64,000 nt of DNA from a virus, in the IMG/VR virus record IMGVR_UViG_3300046810_000256, positions 1-64,000 of that record; one strand, 5' to 3'. This document shows positions 6,897 to 45,572 of the stretch, one piece after another. Position numbers and translations under genes: made by a program. The notes under the pieces are model-generated. The model made no database searches and was not told the DNA's origin. It saw only the letters and a list, made by a program, of their open reading frames with translations. How positions within the stretch are numbered: position 1 is the first letter of the stretch; every line of letters starts with the position of its first letter.

Positions 6897-9800
6897 TTAG
6901 AAGGCCTCCGCCGTGGCTTTGAGTGCGTGCTGGCTGTACGCCTCGGCTGCATCGGCAAACAAGCCGCTCAGCTCGCCCTCACCGTAGGCCGCGTAGATAC
7001 GCTCCAGCTCTTTCATCACGCTGTCAGGGTCGCCCAGGTCGGCGGAACCATCAATGATGCTGTCAAGGTAGGCTTTGGCTTTCTGCAAGGCGGTGTCCTT
7101 TTCGTCGGTGGTCTGCTCAGCCGTCTGTGCCGGGGGCTGGCTGAAGAGGTCATTCTGCTCGATGGCGAACACACCTTCACCGAATTCCTTTTCAAGCTCG
7201 GTGTTGGCGGCCTTGACGATATCGGCAAAGGTGGCGGGCTCATCACCGAACAGACCGGCAGTCTGCTTGCGACGTGCTTCCGACTCCACGAACTGCGCCA
7301 TGGCCTTGAACGCGGCGCCGAGGCGCTTGGCGCTACGGTTGTTCTTGCTGATGAACATCGCCATTGCAGCCACGGACGGATCGACGTCACCGAACATATC
7401 GCTTTGGCGCAGGAACTCGTCCAGGCCCATCCCGCTGTCCTTGGCTTTACGCAACACGTTGGTGGCGTTGATGATCGCGTTTACCGCTTCCTGATCCAGC
7501 GACAGTTCCAGAGAGTCGGTCACCTTCTCGCCAGCGGCCTCGGCGCCTACCGCGTCCAGTTCCTTGGCGCGCATGAAGTCAGGCGCGGCCATGTTCAGCG
7601 CGCTGACGATGTTGGCAATCTCGGGCTTGCTGGAATCGGCGGTGAGCTCCAGCAGGCGGTCGTCGGAATAGGCGCCAGCAAAGAGCGCGGCCTGCACGCG
7701 GTTGACCAGACTGGCGGTCGGGCGCCCGTCGGTGGTCATGTACTGAGCCGCTTCAGCATCGCCCAGGCTTTGCAGGAACGCGCTGACAAAATCGCGGTTC
7801 GCGGCACTGGTGAGGTCGCCGTCGGCCAGCTTCGCCATCATGGCAGTGTCGAGGCGCTTGGCATCGCTGCGGGCCTTCTCAGTCGCAGTCATGGCCAGCT
7901 TGTCGTCTTGGTTGGCTTCTACGGCGAACTCAGCGCGATCCACGGCACTGACGCGCACACGCACCAGCACCGGGGCTTTCATGCTCTCGATTTTGCTGGC
8001 GCTGACTTTGAAGTAGTCGGCGTGCTCCAGCAGCCACTGGCGGTATTCGTCGGCCTGGCCAATGCGGTATGCCTCACGGATGGCCATGGCGCGACCGTTA
8101 CCGGATTCCACCACGCGGTCTTTACCGACGATAGGCGCGCCACTGTCGGCACGGTTGGTGCGCCCCAGGCTGTCCGGATCAAGATTGCGGGCCGTCTTCT
8201 GCACCCACGCCTGAGACGTCGCACGCGCACGGTCACGCGGTTGCAGCTCGCTCGGGTAGTCCGGGTTCGCGGTACCGTCGGATTCGTGGCTGATGATCAG
8301 GTTTTTAGCGTCAATCACCTTGAAGCCGGTGACAACCTTCGTCCCCTTGGCGGTTTTAACGGTGTTCTCGCGGCCTTCGGGTTCAATCTCGCCAGAGTCG
8401 TCGTTATTGGCAGGGTCAGATACACCAGACAGGTCAACAACCTCGCCAACCTTCGATTCGAAGTCATCGGTATTCAGCAGCTTCGTCATGTACTGCTTGC
8501 CGTCTTTGTCGAAGTACACGTTTTCGGCGCCGACACTCAGAACCGTTGCAGAACCTAATGCAGCAACGTCCTTGTAGTCCTCCAGAATCGTGCTGCTGGT
8601 CGACACTGCCGGGATTGTCTCCTGAGCCTTTTTCAGATCGCGCAGACCGAATCCGTCTACCTTGGCCTTGGCAGCGCTCACGAGGTCACGCCCGATACCG
8701 GCCAGAATTTCGTCTTTGGTGCCGCTGGCGCCCAAGCTGAAGCCAGCTTTCAGCACGAGCTCACGCAGCGCATCAACATCGTCGATTGCATCCAGCACAC
8801 CCAGCGCACCCATCGCGTTACCGGCGACCAGCGCCGCGGTCAGCTTCTCCAGATCGGTGCGGTTGTCCCGCAGGCTTGGGTCATCGCCGAGCATGTCCGG
8901 CTGCGCGTCAGGCTTCAGCGATGCCGCTTGCTCGCTGACTTCTGATGCTTCCGGCCCACGATACCCGGCGTCCCACAGCTGTTTCGCCATGTCGGCGATG
9001 TCTTTGACCAGATTCCCGTAATACGCATCGTCTGACGACATGTCGGCGAGTCTGGCGCGAGCACCCGCCAGCATTTCCAGCAAACGTGCGATCTTCTGCG
9101 CCTCAGGATCGTCGGCGCCGTTGCCATGGTCTTGATTGTCCAGGCCAGCGGTCTGTTGCGCTTCCAGCGTGCGCAGCATTTCGGAAACGTCCGCCAAGTA
9201 ATTGCTGGCGTTGATGGTGGCGAGAATGCCGCCGCTGTCGATGGCCGCCTGAGTCTCGGCGATAGTGGTGGTCAGCCAGGCAATGGCGTTTTTCTTGTTG
9301 CCACCCTTACCGACAATCGAACGCCCGGTTTTCTTGCCGGACTGGACGGCGACCAGATCCGCTTTGTGCTCTGCGAGCTTGGTGGTCAGTGTGTCGACGG
9401 TGAAGCCTTTCTGCTCGCCGCTCGCCACCTGCGCCATGAACTCTTCGCGAGTGAGTGGCGTGCCGCCCAGCGCTTTGATCTTCTCCGCGATGCCATCGGC
9501 TTGCGCCAGGTACTGCTCGGCGTATTCGGATGCCTTGGCCGCAATGCCTTCTGGCGTGGTTTCCGTGCTAGCGACCGGCGCGGGGAGCTTGTCGACTTTG
9601 GCTTGCAGATCCGCAACCTGCTCATCAAGGCTTTGCAGCTCGGCGACCTTGCTCTGCACCTGGCCCTTGAGTTCTTCGATTTTGGCGGCGCTCTCAGCAC
9701 TGGCGCCGCTGGCCTTGATGAACTTCGCGCTGTTCTTCTCCACCAGCGTCATGATGCGGCGGGCCACTTGCCGCGGGCTGATGTCCTGGCCGCGCTCGGG

Positions 9801-39011: not shown

Positions 39012-40562
39012 TTAAGCGACGTCGGCGAGAAGGTCAGCTGCTTTGCTTAGAGTCGCCTGGGCCCGCGAAGACTGAGCCGCCTCGGTTTCTTCACTGCACG
39101 CGATGTAGTTGACGTCCTCAAGGAAGACCATGCAGATGGTGTCAAACAAGTCCGGGGATGACAGGCCATCGGCGGCCATGCTCTCTTTGCTGGCGATCTT
39201 GTAGCGCCCCAGCTCATCGAACGAATACGGCAGTCGTGAGCCTTGGTCGATCAGGTCGCGCTTGTGCTTCTTGCCCAGCTTGACCACGCCGTCTTTGATT
39301 GCCTCGGTGGCATGCACGGTGCATTGCGCGCGCTGGTTGATGAATCGCTTGCGGTTCTCGTTGGAATGCGGCTTGGCGCCCCACAGAACGCCCTGAATGA
39401 TCATGCTGCCCTCTTGCAGCTCTTCCAGTCGGCGCTGGAACTGCTTACCCATGGCCGAGACGTCGATAACGATGGTGACGTTTGGCAGGCGCATGGCGTA
39501 ATCGCGCAGCTTGACCGCCAGCGGCGTCCAGTCCTCAGTTGCGCTGTAGATCGGCACGTCGACCACCTCCACCCGGCGGCGGCGCTCGTTCGCCATCCGG
39601 TCGCCCTTGCCGGTGACGCGGAAGTGGGTGGCCACGGTCTTGTCTCGCCCAACGCCAGCCGCGACGTCGACAACGATAATGTGGCCCCACTCTTCGCCTG
39701 GCAGGATCGGGCTCGCCTGCTCTATCGCCCGTTCGATCAGCACCGAACTCAGCAGGTATTTGCTGAGGTTGGTCGGGAACATGCCCCGCACCTTGATCTG
39801 ATATTCCGGCTCCATCGTGCCGCCGTACTGGAGCCGCTTTTCCTTGATGAACTTGAGGCTGACAATCGGGCTTTCTTCGGAGTTGAATACCAGCGGTACC
39901 CAGCCACCGCCGCGGTAGATGGACTGGCCGTGGTGCGTCTCCCAAAAGAAACCGGTAGAGCGCGTCGGCTGGCTGGCCATGATGAAGCGGTTGCGCTCGT
40001 CGGTCAGTGCGCCACCGATTACGCCAAAGTTCTCGTCTGGAATGCCGGACGCTTCGTCCGCCAGCCATAGCAGGTACTCGCCGTGGGTACCGGCCAAGTT
40101 CTCAGGCGAGCCGCGTGGAGCGGTACGGGTGGTGACGTACCATGTGGCGCTGTTACCGACCACATAGACTTTCTCAGCTTGGATAACCACGTAGTCAGCG
40201 ATCCACGCATGCGGCCCTTTGCGGATCTCCGCCAGCATGGTGGTGATTTCCTTCCACACACCCTCTCGCACCGTCTTGAGCTTCGGCGCGGTTACATAGG
40301 TGTTGGAATTGAGATAGCACAGCAGGTGCCAGAGGCAGATGACCCCGAAGCTGCGGGTTTTACCAGTACCGTGGCCAGACGATACCGACACCCGACAGCC
40401 GTAGACTGAGGATTCATCAAAGAGCTCTTGTTGTTGCGGTGTGACATCCATCAAACACGCTTCAACCGCAAAGGCGTACAGGTTGAAGGCGTAGCGTTCG
40501 ATGAAAGCGGGCCACCTCGGGTCTGTTTCTAAGCGCAGACGCTGGGCTTTCGGCTTGGCCAT
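39012..40562 (-). CDS. pacB: Terminase large subunit
   Basis: Walker A SGHGTGKT, Walker B WLADEASG, SQPTR motif III, RNase H domain IVVDVAAG...SPDLFD. Confidence 0.92.
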   Translation of the reverse strand: MAKPKAQRLRLETDPRWPAFIERYAFNLYAFAVEACLMDVTPQQQELFDESSVYGCRVSVSSGHGTGKTRSFGVICLWHLLCYLNSNTYVTAPKLKTVREGVWKEITTMLAEIRKGPHAWIADYVVIQAEKVYVVGNSATWYVTTRTAPRGSPENLAGTHGEYLLWLADEASGIPDENFGVIGGALTDERNRFIMASQPTRSTGFFWETHHGQSIYRGGGWVPLVFNSEESPIVSLKFIKEKRLQYGGTMEPEYQIKVRGMFPTNLSKYLLSSVLIERAIEQASPILPGEEWGHIIVVDVAAGVGRDKTVATHFRVTGKGDRMANERRRRVEVVDVPIYSATEDWTPLAVKLRDYAMRLPNVTIVIDVSAMGKQFQRRLEELQEGSMIIQGVLWGAKPHSNENRKRFINQRAQCTVHATEAIKDGVVKLGKKHKRDLIDQGSRLPYSFDELGRYKIASKESMAADGLSSPDLFDTICMVFLEDVNYIACSEETEAAQSSRAQATLSKAADLLADVA

Positions 40563-40604
40563 ATGATCCTTAAACACAAAGGGGCCAGTTCCCCGGCCCC
40601 TGTC

Positions 40605-40645
40605 ACTCTACGTCTACGCCGTTCGCACTTTCAGAGACGGTTTGC
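40605..40645 (-). promoter_or_regulatory. Late promoter motif dedicated to pacB (GCAAACC-N28-TAGAGT)
   Basis: Conserved spacing; overlaps the 3' end of the upstream gene. Confidence 0.65.
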
Positions 40646-41333
40646 GGTCTTGCGTGGCGTTCAGAACGAACGCTTTCCAGCTGCTGCCAGACGCCCAGCA
40701 GCTCAACGTGGTTTGTGTCGCCCGGAAAAATCCTTTGCGTCGACCTTGGCCAGAGTGCAACACCATGCCGCCACCGCTGCGGGCAAGCCCTTCACGCGCC
40801 ACCTGAAAGCTCACCTCCGGCATGGTGCTGGCGTCCTCCATCAACCACATGGGATCGCGCCCACCGAAACCGGCCATGTGTTCCGGGGAATGCGCGCTGG
40901 CGGCCAGAAAGAGCACGCCACAGCCTGAATACTCTGCCTGCTGGCGAAGTCTGATGCTTCTGATGGTGATTCGCAGGTAACCGACCAACCATGCGTGCTC
41001 GCCCTCAATACGCTTGACCAACTTGCTGTATTGCTCACAGCAGCGAAGCATGTCGCCGAAGGGCACGGCCACCATAGTCATCGACTCGGGGCGGCACAGC
41101 AGGCGCCAGAACGCGATAGGCGCCAGCGGGCTGATCATTCCCCGCTCCATCGGATTCATGTCTGACGCCATCGACACCTGGCAGTCAGGCAGCTGCACAC
41201 TTTCGAAGGCTCGCGCCAGTTGATCGTCCACTACCATCCCGCACACCTCACGCGCGAACGCGGCCAGGTCGTTGGCGTAGCGCCGGACGAAAGCGGGCCA
41301 GCGCTCGTCATCTTGAATCAGGCTCGTGCTCAT
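40614..41333 (-). CDS. Inactive paralogue of the PacB ATPase domain
   Basis: Colinear similarity to about PacB residues 10-240; Walker A lost, Walker B altered; ATGA-coupled start at 41333. Confidence 0.8.
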   Translation of the reverse strand: MSTSLIQDDERWPAFVRRYANDLAAFAREVCGMVVDDQLARAFESVQLPDCQVSMASDMNPMERGMISPLAPIAFWRLLCRPESMTMVAVPFGDMLRCCEQYSKLVKRIEGEHAWLVGYLRITIRSIRLRQQAEYSGCGVLFLAASAHSPEHMAGFGGRDPMWLMEDASTMPEVSFQVAREGLARSGGGMVLHSGQGRRKGFFRATQTTLSCWASGSSWKAFVLNATQDRKPSLKVRTA

Positions 41334-41929
41334 GCTGCGGCCTCGCTGGCCAGCTGCGCCAACTCGCGCTCGTGTTCGGCGATCAGCAGCGCGCCAGCCT
41401 TCTCGATGGCGCGAAGTCGTGACTCTTGTTTCATGGGGGCGTGAGGCCATGGCCAGACGGTTGGCGCGAAGTCCGGCACCAGCAGCTGAAGCAAGTAACC
41501 CGCCGCCGCGCGCAGCAGCTCGTCATCGCGATAGCGCAGGTCGCGTTCCGGGTGATACCCCTTCACCAGCAGCTGGCGCTGGCGCTCGCTCAGAATGGCG
41601 TTCTCGCTCGGGCCGGTGATTGGCATGGATGACCACAGCGCCAGCGGCTGCTCCCATCCATTGGCGGCCTTCTGCGCCCATTCAGTTGTGGTCATGCGCG
41701 CATATGGCCGCGTCACGGAAATACCCTGATCACGCCCACGGCGCACCAGAAGCCACGCTTTTGGCTGCTGAGTGGCGTGGCGAGACTGCGCCAGCGATTC
41801 CCACACCAGAAACGTCTTCTGTGTGTGGGCGTTCACGTACTCGCCCGTCTCGGTGTTGAATGCCAGGTCACTGATACCCGCATGCCGACACGAGCGCTCA
41901 AAATGTTCGCGACTGAAAAAGAGGGTCAT
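41330..41929 (-). CDS. Conserved phage hypothetical protein
   Basis: ERQRQ...GY...D...EL.RAAAGY...WPW...KAGALLIAE motif common in phage early genes; likely start ATG 41929. Confidence 0.6.
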   Translation of the reverse strand: MTLFFSREHFERSCRHAGISDLAFNTETGEYVNAHTQKTFLVWESLAQSRHATQQPKAWLLVRRGRDQGISVTRPYARMTTTEWAQKAANGWEQPLALWSSMPITGPSENAILSERQRQLLVKGYHPERDLRYRDDELLRAAAGYLLQLLVPDFAPTVWPWPHAPMKQESRLRAIEKAGALLIAEHERELAQLASEAAA

Positions 41930-42186
41930 GGTGTTGTTCCCGCCGCTGCTGGCTTGAATTGAAAGAGTTCGACAGGCGCCGCCGGTAAGTCGAATACGGC
42001 GGCGAGCCATGGGTGGATAGCATCCGGATCGCTGGCGCCGTCGAAGCGCCAGCGTTCTGCCGGGAAGTGTTCGCGCAGTGCGTGCTCGATCTCGCCCGCG
42101 CCATTGCGCAACCACAACTCATTCCCGCACTCACGCTCAACTGACAGCGTTTCGCCGGTCACAAGGTTCGTCACGGTCTGGCTCAC
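41926..42186 (-). CDS. Hypothetical protein
   Basis: Coupled overlaps on both sides. Confidence 0.5.
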   Translation of the reverse strand: MSQTVTNLVTGETLSVERECGNELWLRNGAGEIEHALREHFPAERWRFDGASDPDAIHPWLAAVFDLPAAPVELFQFKPAAAGTTP

Positions 42187-42674
42187 TTCATTTCCCCGGT
42201 CTTGCGGTTGATCTCGGTTGGCTTGGTGAAAGCGCGGGAGAATCGGAATTCAGCAATGACCTGATTGAAACTGTGTTCTACCCGGTCGAAATACTGATTC
42301 CCTTCGGCCATCAACGCCTGCGCCAGCCACGCGGCGGGGACGCTGCGCCCCTCTTCCACGTAGGTGGCCAGGCTCCGCACCAGCCGCTGCTCGGCGTAGG
42401 TACCGCTGAAGCCCGGCAGCAAGCGGCCCTTGCCGCGAACCGTCGTCGCCAGATCCACCGGGCGAGCGTCCGCGGTCGGCAGCACCAGATAGAACCCGCC
42501 GAGGCGCTTGGGCTCCAGGCGTGCAACACGGTCTTTTCTGCCAAAGATGCGCAACCCCGCCAGCGCCAGCGAATTGAAAATCAGGTTCGCGGTGTCCAGT
42601 CGGTGCTGCTGGCGCTCAGTCAGCGCGATTGCCGCGGGCGGTGTCAGTTGCACGGGTGCTGCTTGCATATCCAT
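42183..42674 (-). CDS. Hypothetical protein
   Basis: 163-aa ORF in a coupled chain. Confidence 0.55.
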   Translation of the reverse strand: MDMQAAPVQLTPPAAIALTERQQHRLDTANLIFNSLALAGLRIFGRKDRVARLEPKRLGGFYLVLPTADARPVDLATTVRGKGRLLPGFSGTYAEQRLVRSLATYVEEGRSVPAAWLAQALMAEGNQYFDRVEHSFNQVIAEFRFSRAFTKPTEINRKTGEMK

Positions 42675-42677
42675 CCC

Positions 42678-42848
42678 CTAAATCTTGAGCCGCATCTGTG
42701 CGCGGTCACATTCGTTTTCACCGTGCGGGAGCTTGTGGGCCAAGGCTTCACAGTTCCTGCGCCCACAATCACGGCAGTAGGTGTAGGCGGGGGCGCTTCG
42801 TGGCCTCCGCCAGATGACGCGATTGCTTTCGCAAAAACGGCAGTTCAT
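42678..42848 (-). CDS. 56-aa zinc-ribbon protein (below the ORF-track cutoff)
   Basis: MNCRFCESNRVIW...YCRDCGRRNC; AGGA RBS. Confidence 0.5.
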   Translation of the reverse strand: MNCRFCESNRVIWRRPRSAPAYTYCRDCGRRNCEALAHKLPHGENECDRAQMRLKI

Positions 42849-42874
42849 CAGTCCTGTCCCGGTCTATCCCCGGA

Positions 42875-44161
42875 CTAGGCGGGACGCGCTTCGATCATCG
42901 CCTGCGCGTACACCCATCGGCGATTAGCAAAGGCGGCCATGCTTTCGTCTGATTTTTGCTTCAGCGGGCAGTTGATGGCGAAGTCATCGCGCAGCTCTGT
43001 CAGGTACAGACCCAGCTTCTTCTCTGGCGCTTTCGGCGCGGTGGCCGGGTCGGCGTAGGCTGGCACGGGTTTTTCGACCGCCAGCGGCAGTTCAACGCTG
43101 TGATACGCCATGCAGAAGGCATCAAACAGGTCGGCGGCTGGGAGTTGGGCGGCTGCGATGTGCGAAGGCTTGGCCACGAGATAGCGATTCTCGGCGCTCA
43201 ACTCATAAGGGATCTTTGAGCCCAACAGCACCAGCGGATCACTCAAGCCGCAATCGGATGGCAGCAGCAGCTTCAGGTTTTTATTCCGAATCGCCTCGGC
43301 AGTCAGAACACTGCATTCAGTGCGGCGGTTCACGAAACGCTTGCCGTTGCCACCTTTTGGCAGCGCTTGACCCATCGTCATTCCGTAACACCTGACATGG
43401 GGACTCACAACGTCTTGAAGGTACTTGAGCAACTGCACGCCATCGCCGAAGGCATCCACGAGAATCGTCGTAGGGGCTGATAGCGCATTGACGTGCCGCA
43501 GCAACGCATCGCCGTAGGACTTCAGATCACCGCCGTCTGTGAGGATTGGATAGCTGGCCACCTCGACCAGTCGGCGGGCGTCAGGGCTGTCATACACGCG
43601 CATGTGGGCGGCAACAGTCATTCCTCCACGACCAGCACCGCCGAGACGGACACCGATTACATGCTTCGCCTCGACACCCTCGGGAATCGGGCTTTCGATG
43701 GTCAGCGCCAGGGCGATATCGGCGTCACTGAGCAGGTAGCCGCGACGATCCTGATTCTGCGCCCGAAGAATCGCGGGGACTTCGTTGTTCGAAGCCATCA
43801 ATGCAGGCTGTACCTTGCCTTTGACCACCACTTGCAGCTGGCCAGATGAATTAGGACGAACGATGTCTTTGATGGCCGTCGCCACCGGGGAGGCCAGGTA
43901 ACTGGTCAGCAGCGGGCGCAGGCGGTAGTGGGTTTGTGCGAATCGCTGTTTACGGCCAAAGCCTTCCTGAACCGACACGGGCTTACAGTTCGGAACATCT
44001 ACCCAGTAATGCACACCACGGGCGGCATTAGCGCGATCCGGCGCCGATACCTTGTAACCTTGGGTGATGAGCCATTGCTTGAAGGACGTCACGTTGCACG
44101 CCAACAGCAGATCGGTGTCGTGCGATTGTCCTTTCGGTTTTACTGCGGGGTTCGACATCAT
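42875..44161 (-). CDS. Protein containing a degenerate paralogue of the PacB nuclease (RNase H) domain
   Basis: About 43103-43739 aligns with the PacB C-terminal half (YLLS...KRFVNRR...ADLFDAFCM); first catalytic Asp replaced by Arg. Confidence 0.8.
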   Translation of the reverse strand: MMSNPAVKPKGQSHDTDLLLACNVTSFKQWLITQGYKVSAPDRANAARGVHYWVDVPNCKPVSVQEGFGRKQRFAQTHYRLRPLLTSYLASPVATAIKDIVRPNSSGQLQVVVKGKVQPALMASNNEVPAILRAQNQDRRGYLLSDADIALALTIESPIPEGVEAKHVIGVRLGGAGRGGMTVAAHMRVYDSPDARRLVEVASYPILTDGGDLKSYGDALLRHVNALSAPTTILVDAFGDGVQLLKYLQDVVSPHVRCYGMTMGQALPKGGNGKRFVNRRTECSVLTAEAIRNKNLKLLLPSDCGLSDPLVLLGSKIPYELSAENRYLVAKPSHIAAAQLPAADLFDAFCMAYHSVELPLAVEKPVPAYADPATAPKAPEKKLGLYLTELRDDFAINCPLKQKSDESMAAFANRRWVYAQAMIEARPA

Positions 44162-44448
44162 TCAGCTCCTAGCGGGTTGGCCGTGAACGGCCTCAGATTT
44201 TTTGTGTTCCCGCGGCGGATGGCCGAGGGACGTTTTTCAACAACAGGCTTGATCCACAGCTGCCCTGTTTTGAACAGGAACAGCTCCCACAGCCCAAGCT
44301 TGATTTTGGTGTCACCCTTCTCGTACAGACGCCACGATTCGCGGCTCACGTAGATCAGCTCCCCCGCAGCGGTTTCGCTCAGGCTCGCGTTCTTGCGGGC
44401 TTGCCGGATGTTTTTTGGGGTCGGTTCGCGGTCGGCGGGGAGCGTCAT
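44158..44448 (-). CDS. XRE-type HTH protein
   Basis: IRQARKNASLSETAAGELIYVSRESWRLYEKG. Confidence 0.75.
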   Translation of the reverse strand: MTLPADREPTPKNIRQARKNASLSETAAGELIYVSRESWRLYEKGDTKIKLGLWELFLFKTGQLWIKPVVEKRPSAIRRGNTKNLRPFTANPLGAE

Positions 44449-45572
44449 GCGTCACCGCCGTTATCATCCAGCCCGGCGATATCGGCCATACGCTGGGCCA
44501 TCGCGTCTCTCTGCGCTTGTGTGGCCTGCATGCCTTTCGCGTAGGCGTCATTCAGCGCAACCGTATCTACAACGGCCACAGGCGCCTGCGCCGGTTCGAT
44601 ATTCATGTTGAAGATGCGGCCCAGCATTTCGAGGTAAGGGCGGGCGTCGTGGATCTTCATTTCCAGCCCATCTTTGGTTTCCTTCACGCCGCCGTACAGA
44701 GCCAGCGCGCCAGGCGAAAGGTGCCGGGTGTCTTTGAGCACGAGCTGGCCAATGCCATTGCCATTGCACTCAGGGCATTCCGGGTTAGGGTCGAGGTTGG
44801 CGTCGAAGCCCAGGCCGCCCAGCTCGTCGAGCACCGGTAACGGCTTGCGCTTCGCGGCCTTGGCTTCGGCCAGCGCCTCAGCATGGCGCGCCTTGCGCTC
44901 TTCCAGCTGACGCGGGGTCATCTGGTACCGGAAATCTTTGCCGTGGCAGCACCGGCAGCAGCGGTAAACGTATTCGACCAACTCCCGAGGGTCTGCCATC
45001 GCCGCGCCGTAGATGCGCTGAATGACTCGCCCGGTGATTTCCTCAGTCTTGGCAAACAGCTCCGCACGCTTGGCCAGCGTGTATGGGTGTTCCTTAACCT
45101 TCTTTAACAGGCGACTGGCTGCTGCTGCCGCCACTGCATCGGATTTGCACTCGTAGCCTGCATCGAGATAGGACTGAGTGCCGTTTTGTGTGACCAGCCA
45201 AAGGTCGACAAACTTCGCCTGACGGGCGTCGAGATCGTGCAGACTCCCGGCCTGCAAGGCTTCCAGCTCTTTCGGTTTCAGCTTGACCGCTTTCTTCACT
45301 CGGGTGCTGCCGCCTGTTCCGCGAGGCGTTTTTGCTTGCGCCGGAGCACCCGGTACCGCCGCAGCAGGTTTTGCAGCACGGGGCTTTCGGGCTAAAGTAG
45401 CAGGCTTTTTAGGTGTCTTTGGAGAGGTGGCTTTTTGAACGCGGCCAGCACTCACCTTAACTTCTGGCTTTTTAGGGGGTGCAAACACAGGTTTGCCAGC
45501 CTTGTCCGGGGATTGATTATCCTCGGCTGGCTTAGCGCGCTCTTCGATACCCTCGATCTTTTTCCGTGCCAC
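44445..45572 (-). CDS. pacA: Terminase small subunit
   Basis: RQAKFVDLW...NGTQSYLDAGY...AASRLL; CRCCHG...PNPECPECNG insert; GVKETKDGLEMK. Confidence 0.85.
   Translation of the reverse strand: MARKKIEGIEERAKPAEDNQSPDKAGKPVFAPPKKPEVKVSAGRVQKATSPKTPKKPATLARKPRAAKPAAAVPGAPAQAKTPRGTGGSTRVKKAVKLKPKELEALQAGSLHDLDARQAKFVDLWLVTQNGTQSYLDAGYECKSDAVAAAAASRLLKKVKEHPYTLAKRAELFAKTEEITGRVIQRIYGAAMADPRELVEYVYRCCRCCHGKDFRYQMTPRQLEERKARHAEALAEAKAAKRKPLPVLDELGGLGFDANLDPNPECPECNGNGIGQLVLKDTRHLSPGALALYGGVKETKDGLEMKIHDARPYLEMLGRIFNMNIEPAQAPVAVVDTVALNDAYAKGMQATQAQRDAMAQRMADIAGLDDNGGDA

Follow-up and report, generated by a model that had tools for sequence, protein, structure and literature searches.

The window, the whole 64,000-nucleotide stretch of viral DNA analysed here, comes from a Pseudomonas P1-like phage that is kin to Pseudomonas phage-plasmids. 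The gene of interest lies in its packaging operon, of which all features described below are on the minus strand. terS encodes a PacA-like small terminase (44445..45572; Pfam Terminase_2, E 1e-13; phrog_51) and is followed by a 96-aa HTH gene (44158..44448), which has a weak HTH_31 match, was identified from its sequence and is kept in all related loci. The target gene (P0001; 44161..42875) comes next as an intact open reading frame with an ATG at 44161 and a TAG stop at 42875-42877, its 428-aa product being taken from the open reading frame list and its translation. ATGA overlaps couple the HTH gene translationally to terS upstream and to the target downstream, so the three genes should be co-expressed. 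A search of sequencing runs with the target listed no RNA run and carries no information on expression; the one run that contains the target in full is probably the rhizosphere metagenome from which the window came. Three plus-strand open reading frames (42078..42878, 42956..43219 and 43493..43849) were rejected, since none has homologues and the strand facing them carries a conserved gene under selection. Beyond the target are o163 (P0100; 42183..42674), a basic protein of 163 aa from no known family, then a dead paralogue of the terminase ATPase half (40614..41333) and the resident PacB-type TerL (39012..40577).

The resident TerL belongs to the family from which part of the target protein derives, and is assigned by phrog_2 (E 3e-32). 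It was called at 521 aa, while translation probably begins at the ATG at 40562, which yields 516 aa and matches its relatives. It aligns with P1 PacB at 35% identity over 92% of its length (E 1e-76), has all four acidic active-site residues and is, on sequence grounds, a true PacB homologue. It matched nothing in Pfam and NCBIfam and no solved relative among PDB sequences. The neighbouring ATPase-half paralogue (phrog_5902; start codon checked) aligns with TerL residues 16-242 (BLASTP, 30% identity, E 7e-28) and has lost its Walker A motif. Its copies share 27-76% identity in phages with TerLs that are 84-91% identical.

The target is a packaging-operon protein of three parts: an N domain, an inserted middle (M) domain and a C-terminal motif. 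Family libraries gave little guidance to this architecture, with zero matches for the target in Pfam, NCBIfam and PADLOC and, in PHROG, a single weak match to phrog_20565, whose function is unknown. The curated terminase models of Pfam, NCBIfam and the PHROG terminase families do not match it, and megablast and tblastn searches of a phage collection with the target returned no match. Near-length homologues are found in Pseudomonas (n=19, 48-85% identity). The N domain (residues 10-104; 43850..44134) is a conserved, basic (pI 9.9) mixed alpha/beta block modelled at pLDDT above 90, and is homologous to the N termini of 169-293-aa proteins that have no M domain. The ESM Atlas places it close in structure to DUF1257 and to small viral proteins without an assigned function (TM 0.55-0.59), which we regard as a lead only. 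The C-terminal two-helix motif (residues 383-427; 42881..43015; L-x-D-LRDDFA-x-x-CPL ... FA-x-RRW-x-YAQAM-x-x-R) has its modelled helices at residues 385-396 and 408-424. It is the most widely conserved part of this scaffold family, with 12 invariant columns across 50 members; 21 of the 50 have a weak phrog_20565 match, and a Pfam scan of them all found no consistent match.

An earlier note, made from the sequence alone, had held that a PacB nuclease-like domain is flanked here by unrelated N- and C-terminal segments. This is borne out by BLASTP, in which residues 1-140 and 358-428 have no TerL similarity, and by a whole-genome search that matched the nuclease-like region only. The flanks are in fact a separate protein in their own right, since homologues with the N domain and C motif and without the nuclease-like domain occupy the same locus position. 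The search for homologues with and without the domain that the note had proposed was run against 1.84 billion proteins, and about half of the scaffold family proved to be domain-less. Domain-less scaffolds at the same position include those of pKF715C (WP_096427223.1, 272 aa), a Pseudomonas atacamensis SM1 plasmid (WP_206422306.1, 197 aa) and a viral contig (L011). They share the terS-HTH-scaffold order, N domain and C motif with the target, as pKF715C, P. atacamensis SM1 and the 196-aa P0026 illustrate, but have a short linker of low conservation where the target has a 217-residue nuclease-like domain, and their loci also have no o163. A scaffold gene follows terS and the HTH gene and precedes terL in 13/13 distinct related Pseudomonas P1-like phage-plasmid loci (L001/L008, L002, L003, L009-L014 and L016-L019).

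The M domain (residues 141-357; 43091..43741) has a TerL PacB-type nuclease fold with a broken metal site, as BLASTP, structure matching and a tree all indicate. The similarity to the PacB C-terminus that had been proposed for about residues 141-353 is recovered by BLASTP, in which target residues 142-353 pair with 274-485 of the resident TerL (34% identity, E 2e-21). Every motif pair quoted in its support lies within this alignment (target/TerL): YLLSDADIALA/YLLSSVLIERA, RRLVEVASYPI/RRRVEVVDVPI, KRFVNRRTECSV/KRFINQRAQCTV, GSKIPY/GSRLPY and ADLFDAFCM/PDLFDTICM. A phmmer search from the target also matches TerLs of 507-526 aa. When searched for a packaging ATPase (Walker A/B), the target yielded none, residues 1-140 resembling neither TerL nor any family, and the sole ATPase-like copy nearby is the separate gene at 41333..40614.

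Comparison of the predicted model with solved structures identifies the M domain as a terminase RNase H-like fold. The AlphaFold (AF2) model has a pLDDT of 86.6 overall and above 90 across residues 141-357; it was built from a 94-row alignment, a 19-sequence alignment having given a pLDDT of 51 and been discarded. VIA matches the M domain to the E217 TerL nuclease (8dkr) with Z 19.8 and rmsd 2.9 over 201 residues, followed by Sf6 gp2 (4idh, 5c12; Z 19.5), T4 gp17 (3cpe; Z 15.8) and SPP1 G2P (2wc9; Z 12.3). Terminases fill the top 14 places among the VIA matches, ahead of the next fold at Z 8.4, and Foldseek gave E 3e-8. The Avs3-TerL complex (8dgc) appears among the fold matches solely through its TerL chain. 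With these solved nucleases of E217, Sf6, T4 and SPP1 the fold is shared but sequence identity is just 10-13%, and sequence searches of the PDB with the target alone and with two profiles matched no chain. Residues conserved across TerLs are kept, including an RF-x-N-x-R motif and the GS-x-x-PY hairpin region.

The active site itself is broken. The two changes described in the earlier note, IVVD to IGVR and GRDKT to GRGGMT, are both present: TerL reads IVVD(304)VAAGVGRD(312)KT where the target reads IGVR(172)LGGAGRGGMT. The Arg172 codon (43646..43648; checked against the alignments) thus occupies the position of the TerL beta1 catalytic residue Asp304, which in the alignment is Arg in 25/25 paralogues and Asp in 13/13 full-length TerLs. 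The second Asp (TerL D312) is Gly in the target and lost in most paralogues, a few of which keep a nearby Asp. Retained are Asp236 (codon 43454..43456, checked), which corresponds to TerL Asp372 at the end of beta4 and is invariant in the alignment, and Asp344-x-x-Asp347 (codons 43121..43132, checked in the alignments), which correspond to TerL Asp476 and Asp479 at the start of the C-terminal helix; most paralogues have Glu at position 347. The complete metal-binding carboxylate set (beta1 Asp, beta4 Asp/Glu and C-terminal helix Asp) is not found in the M domain. In SPP1 gp2, substitution of the equivalent Asp266 (D266N) abolishes both nuclease activity and pac cleavage (PMC3592435), from which we infer that nuclease activity has been lost here. 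Since the metal-bridging Asp is now an invariant Arg and the second Asp is lost, the M domain should be incapable of two-metal DNA cutting and would have to act by binding. Judged from its sequence it is almost certainly non-cutting, and the locus very probably encodes a scaffold protein with an inserted TerL nuclease domain that is dead, under selection and limited to binding.

The history of the M domain can be read from its phylogeny. The M domains group together in a single clade (SH-aLRT 99) that lies inside the PacB-type TerL group of Pseudomonas, which points to a single origin. In a tree built from the N domain and C motif, the forms without the M domain branch among those that have it. 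A single clade of domain-bearing forms is rejected by the AU test (p 0.004), and P0026, compared with its relative P0016, is missing precisely residues 127-376; together these observations argue for secondary loss. The trees indicate that the domain was acquired once from a PacB-type TerL, by duplication within the phage group, and was then lost at least once. The M domain is under purifying selection, with a dN/dS of 0.12-0.51 and a reading frame that is intact in 25/25 sequences at divergences down to ~30% identity. The recruitment to a new function suggested by the earlier note fits this selection and the invariant residues.

The domain also behaves as an allelic cassette, of which divergent alleles are exchanged between otherwise near-identical phages. 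Between loci L010 and L012 the surrounding ~12 kb is mostly 86-100% identical at the DNA level (200-bp windows) and the TerL protein is 97-100% identical, whereas DNA identity falls to 56-76% in the target gene and protein identity to 50% in the M domain. This allele swap is unmatched by changes in TerL, TerS, o163 or the dead ATPase copy. The M domain is thus optional and allelically hypervariable, while TerL is 84-100% identical among those phages. As dS is saturated within the cassette, its divergence stems from swapping of old alleles rather than from evolution shown to be rapid.

Presence of o163 tracks the M domain. It is found in 7/7 M-domain loci (the window, L008, L009, L010, L012, L013 and L014) and is absent in 3/3 compared loci without the domain (L002, L003 and L011). 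By hhalign it is unrelated to a TerL profile, and complex prediction of the M domain with o163 scored 0.00, a result bearing neither for nor against binding. Further dead nuclease copies, with the beta1 Asp replaced by Val, stand alone directly after terL in L016-L018 (P0050, P0038 and relatives). Neither P0038 nor P0045, the latter from a second short clade with P0051 and P0058, gave a match in scans of viral contigs. In plasmids, tblastn with P0050 and P0045 returned true TerLs only, and a P. psychrotolerans plasmid locus holds TerL only.

Taken as a whole, these observations are best explained by a non-catalytic mimic of the TerL nuclease that works by binding, a reading to which, taken with the role proposed next, we assign a probability of roughly 0.45. 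A presumably dead copy of the nuclease sits in the linker of the scaffold, its fold kept, and would be made together with the terminase subunits to engage a variable partner outside the packaging operon. The likeliest partner would be a factor of the host by which the terminase is recognised or attacked, implying a counter-defence or conflict role. It is because the M domain is optional and strongly different between near-identical phages that we consider a binding mimic in some conflict probable, and conflict or anti-immunity is favoured over packaging control; stated as a specific role, conflict or mimicry is a tentative prediction, held at somewhat less than even odds. Large terminases, which rank with the most conserved proteins of phages, are sensed as infection signatures by bacterial STAND/Avs receptors (PMC13581612). 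More speculatively, and with considerable doubt, the hypervariable mimic may intercept a host immune sensor, of Avs/STAND type or similar, that recognises the TerL fold, or else some other factor targeting TerL. In that case parallel solutions could be seen in the dead ATPase half and in the dead nuclease genes that stand alone in sister phages. A search of defence and anti-defence families with the target matched none, and nothing links the protein to any particular host system. A pure mimic would have no need to keep three of the TerL site's four acidic residues, as the M domain does. Searches of the literature for a terminase decoy, a dead terminase paralogue or a terminase-mimic inhibitor found no such arrangement or inhibitor described.

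The packaging-operon position and the scaffold in every relative fit a role in packaging equally well. The dead domain might bind pac DNA, TerL, TerS or the portal and so tune when and where the active PacB-type enzyme cuts, or aid assembly, by analogy with catalytically dead paralogues that regulate an active partner. We consider such a regulator possible though rather unlikely. Several features speak for it: the gene is located between terS and terL, its translation is coupled to that of terS and the HTH gene, every related locus carries the scaffold, the N domain, with a pI of 9.9, is basic, and the M domain keeps the TerL-wide RF-x-N-x-R and GS-x-x-PY regions; a precedent is also at hand in the vestigial DNA-binding nuclease within the phi29 motor, the gp16 C-terminal domain (PMC7672431). 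However, L011, L002, L003 and L016-L019 have complete packaging operons without an M domain, which is therefore dispensable in nature, and M alleles change without corresponding changes in TerL, TerS or the dead ATPase copy (in L010 and L012, TerL is 97-100% and M 50% identical). P1 and Xanthomonas phage Rb1, moreover, have terS adjoining terL with nothing between. The same lack of co-variation bears on an improbable reading in which the dead nuclease domain and dead ATPase half poison the terminase of related phage-plasmids, whether co-resident or superinfecting, as a dominant-negative subunit, own packaging being spared. Such interference would suit an optional, allelically diverse domain that mimics a subunit oligomerising on the portal, and co-infection is plausible given how common this group's phage-plasmids are in soil and rhizosphere Pseudomonas. 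Self-sparing, however, predicts that M alleles co-vary with TerL, and the genes lie in a late packaging operon rather than among prophage-expressed genes.

Two further readings concern whether the domain is dead and whether it is selected at all. In one, a non-canonical site, for example a one-metal site, is built from Asp236, Asp344 and Asp347 (or Glu) together with further residues, making the protein an additional endonuclease with a different target. The family does conserve three acidic residues of the TerL site, and SPP1 gp2 D321N and D403N retain partial activity (PMC3592435), but the lost Asp alone binds both metals and its substitution by itself kills SPP1 gp2 activity (PMC3592435). 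With a positively charged Arg in 25/25 paralogues and the second Asp gone in the target and most paralogues, we regard an active nuclease as highly unlikely. We hold an equally low opinion of a decaying, functionless duplicate carried along by the scaffold gene; the optional M domain does evolve much faster than TerL (dN 0.3-0.7 versus 0.04-0.16), yet its frame is intact in 25/25 sequences, residues including Arg172 and Asp236 are invariant, dN/dS is 0.12-0.51 and the fold is predicted confidently (pLDDT above 90).

Our results describe a phage group that repeatedly keeps intact, selected, catalytically dead single-domain copies of its terminase beside the real gene. Should these copies be conflict mimics, whether between host and phage or between phages, they would represent a new counter-defence principle, and if the favoured binding mimic proves to target an immune sensor, a new class of counter-defence built from dead copies of a host-sensed protein. 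Should they instead regulate packaging, they would form a pseudoenzyme layer in a P1-type pacase, of which we know of no described example. Under either reading, the natural alleles with and without the domain provide a ready-made experiment, and cultivable carriers exist in P. fluorescens DR133 (plasmid CP048608) and P. azerbaijanoccidentalis SWRI74.

Among known systems, the M domain is homologous to the nuclease of P1 PacB and the resident TerL, with the beta4 Asp and the D-x-x-D helix motif kept. It differs from TerL in having no attached ATPase and in sitting between an unrelated N domain and C motif. The stand-alone copies of sister phages are likewise PacB-type nuclease copies from the same phage group, with the beta1 Asp replaced and the real terL alongside, but they are separate 211-304-aa genes with their own C-terminal tail, and the domain tree places them in separate clades. 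For a terminase nuclease domain that only binds, the best precedent, likened here by description, is phi29 gp16, in whose C-terminal domain a terminase-derived nuclease fold has lost catalysis and kept DNA binding (PMC7672431). The dead domain of phi29 is part of the packaging ATPase and essential to the motor, whereas the M domain is a second copy beside an intact TerL, carried in another protein, optional and variable.

The central (M) domain of P0001, a 428-aa protein encoded on the minus strand as a single intact ORF (ATG at 44161, stop at 42875-42877), is a probable pseudoenzyme derived from a terminase nuclease. As the earlier note had proposed, part of P0001 matches the C-terminus of the resident PacB-type large terminase, TerL. 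Residues 142-353 align with TerL 274-485 at 34% identity (BLASTP, E 2e-21), and every motif pair previously quoted is found in this alignment. Sequence methods found no relative of solved structure for either P0001 or TerL, so that the predicted fold was a real test. AlphaFold performed poorly with 19 sequences (pLDDT 51); with an alignment of 94 rows that combined paralogues, TerLs and domain-less relatives it reached a pLDDT of 86.6, and above 90 across the M domain. Residues 141-357 of this model match the TerL nuclease domain of Pseudomonas phage E217 (Z 19.8, rmsd 2.9, 201 residues), and also those of Sf6 gp2 (Z 19.5) and T4 gp17 (Z 15.8), with G20c, D6E, HK97, HCMV, SPP1 and P22 ranked next. 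The best non-terminase match has a Z of only 8.4. Foldseek concurs on the TerL nuclease fold (E 3e-8) and a BFVD search returned terminases only. Structure prediction therefore yielded the terminase RNase H-like fold that had been expected, and by fold and homology the M domain belongs to the terminase nuclease fold family.

The active site was compared across 25 paralogue domains, 13 full-length TerLs and 10 short proteins. All aligned TerLs carry an Asp ending β1, an R-D before β2, an Asp ending β4 and a D-x-x-D starting the C-terminal helix. The β1 Asp is the residue that contacts both metals in TerL nucleases. Its position is Arg in 25 of 25 paralogues (Arg172 in P0001), and the loss of this first RNase H acidic residue had been correctly read from IVVD304 in TerL against IGVR172, as had the correspondence of TerL GRD312KT to GRGGMT. 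The second acidic position is non-acidic in most paralogues, including the window's protein, while the β4 Asp (Asp236) is invariant and the helix pair is kept as Asp344 with Asp or Glu at position 347. Because the metal-bridging β1 Asp is replaced, and the equivalent D266N substitution in SPP1 gp2 alone abolishes both nuclease activity and pac cleavage (PMC3592435), we strongly infer from the alignment that the M domain would be incapable of two-metal catalysis. The catalytic residues expected of a terminase nuclease are thus incomplete in the M domain, and P0001 has no ATPase domain and is therefore not a large terminase.

The segments flanking the M domain had been described as unrelated to the nuclease, and they prove to constitute a separate family, the scaffold, composed of an N domain (residues 10-104) and a C motif (residues 383-427). 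Four classes emerged from 1.84 billion representative proteins when the matches were sorted by region: N domain, M domain and C motif together (393-448 aa); N domain and C motif without M (169-293 aa); the C motif with a more diverged N terminus; and TerLs with short nuclease-only proteins. Homologues with and without the inserted domain therefore both exist, and M-less scaffolds of 272, 197 and 196 aa occupy the same locus position in, for example, pKF715C, the P. atacamensis SM1 plasmid and the viral contig L011, respectively; the L011 protein is identical to P0026. When nuclease-type domains are placed on a tree, all the M domains group together in a single clade (SH-aLRT 99), nested among the Pseudomonas PacB-type TerLs and apart from the P1 and Xanthomonas TerLs. 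The M domain therefore probably arose once, from a large terminase within this phage group. In the tree of N domain plus C motif, domain-bearing proteins fall inside one 27-row clade (support 98) that also holds the domain-less P0026/L011 and P0027, with 14 other domain-less proteins outside. A single domain-bearing clade was rejected by an AU test (p 0.004) on a group chosen after viewing the tree. P0026 aligns with its relative P0016 at residues 1-126 and 377-421, and 25 residues replace P0016 127-376. The simplest history, with polarity inferred and the root not fixed, would be a domain-less scaffold that received one TerL nuclease insertion in its linker, followed by at least one later loss. 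ESM Atlas neighbours of the N domain (43850-44134, minus strand) are small viral proteins of unknown function (~125 aa) and DUF1257, at a TM of 0.55-0.59 by query, and provide a lead only.

The source record is an 83,006-bp IMG/VR virus genome whose direct terminal repeats identify it as a complete phage genome. Its relatives are circular Pseudomonas plasmids and contigs of ~80 kb, and together they form one P1-like phage-plasmid group. In the minus-strand direction, the small terminase gene terS (45572..44445; Pfam Terminase_2), a 96-aa HTH gene (44448..44158; weak HTH_31 match) and the P0001 gene are joined by ATGA overlaps and so are translationally coupled. They are followed by o163 (42674..42183; 163 aa, no family), a ~199-aa gene (41929..41330; PHROGs of unknown function), a dead copy of the TerL ATPase half (41333..40614; recognised by similarity to TerL) and TerL itself (40577..39012; phrog_2). 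P1 PacB is 35% identical to the resident TerL over 92% of TerL length, and in both P1 and Xanthomonas phage Rb1 terS directly adjoins terL with no gene between. The TerL ORF as listed begins with GTG, and an in-frame ATG at 40562 fits the 516 aa of relatives; a terminator-like hairpin lies just upstream at 40601-40580. In several TerLs of the group (758-869 aa) the ATPase domain contains an intein (Pfam PF05203 Hint, in some cases with PF14528), at L003:5468-7744, at L019 about 7444-9744 and in proteins P0076, P0089, P0095, P0052 and P0067; the window's TerL has none. The ~199-aa gene, found between scaffold gene and terL in every related locus, corresponds to a 261-aa ORF whose start is probably the ATG at 41929, giving the shorter length seen in relatives. 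The C-terminal 80 residues of its product match eight PHROG families without assigned function (E down to 1.5e-15), found in proteins that differ widely in length. One copy of a dispersed 10-mer, ATCCCCGGAC (GTCCGGGGAT on the strand of the P0001 gene), lies at 42866-42875, starting on the last base of the stop codon and heading a 200-bp gap before o163.

Exactly two dead TerL pieces are present in the window's own genome. The ATPase copy shares 30% identity with TerL residues 16-242, and its Walker A has changed from SGHGTGKT to ASDMNPME. Its identity is only 27-76% between phages with TerLs 84-91% identical, and some loci (L003, L017 and L018) lack it. The loci L016-L018, a sister lineage, encode a scaffold without the domain and carry a stand-alone dead nuclease-domain gene immediately 3' of terL (L016:9001-9717; L017:9001-9819; L018:7113-7808). 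These genes have Val in place of the β1 Asp, a Met of their own at the domain boundary and a tail that is distinct. They look like a tandem duplicate of the 3' half of terL.

The o163 product is basic, matches no family and shows no relation to TerL. Its gene occurs in all seven distinct loci with the M domain, including the distant L013 and L014 (P0001 counterparts only ~40% identical), and is absent from the three compared M-less loci (L002, L003 and L011), a sample that is small and phylogenetically non-independent. No o163 match was found in L016-L019 either, metagenome loci that likewise lack the M domain. Although its scaffold belongs to the domain-bearing clade, L011 lacks both M domain and o163; the C-motif coding region separates the two positions, implying two separate losses.

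Across seven loci, pairwise dN/dS is 0.12-0.51 for the M domain, with dS mostly saturated, and 0.05-0.27 for the TerL nuclease domain. The M domain is thus kept under purifying selection. Amino-acid divergence of the M domain is far above that of TerL: the window and L008, for example, share 51% identity in the M domain against 90% in the TerL nuclease domain. Over the ~12 kb surrounding the gene, L010 and L012 mostly share 86-100% DNA identity per 200-bp window, and their TerLs are 97-100% identical in protein, whereas DNA identity in the scaffold gene is 56-76%, dropping within the N domain and recovering just before the C motif. As dS is high in the same stretch, the difference is a swap for an old, divergent allele, not local fast mutation. 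The exchange leaves terS, the HTH gene, o163, the dead ATPase copy and TerL unchanged, and o163 shows no covariation with M alleles in this pair. A variable surface on one of their products is an unlikely target of the M domain.

The M domain would no longer cut DNA and probably acts by binding instead. Our tentative reading, with a probability of roughly 0.35-0.4, is that it serves in conflict as an optional, allelically diverse and catalytically dead mimic of TerL; these properties fit conflict better than an integral role in packaging. Host STAND/Avs receptors recognise terminase by its fold (PMC13581612). Packaging control, although somewhat less probable, fits both the location of the gene inside the packaging operon and the precedent of phi29 gp16; against an integral packaging role, natural packaging operons can be complete without the M domain, whose alleles vary independently of the terminase subunits. 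Interference with competitors appears improbable. Residual nuclease activity, in a domain that keeps Asp236 and Asp344 with Arg at the β1 position, is very improbable, and the absence of any function equally so.

No account of terminase-domain decoys, or of a catalytically dead TerL nuclease copy placed inside a different protein, turned up in literature searches. For the window and its relatives we document a putative gain and then loss on two trees, the presence/absence boundary between P0026 and P0016, the L010/L012 cassette, the co-occurrence of o163 with the M domain, and the location of the stand-alone dead nuclease genes just behind terL. The C-terminal domain of phi29 gp16 provides the precedent for a vestigial terminase nuclease that can still bind DNA (PMC7672431).
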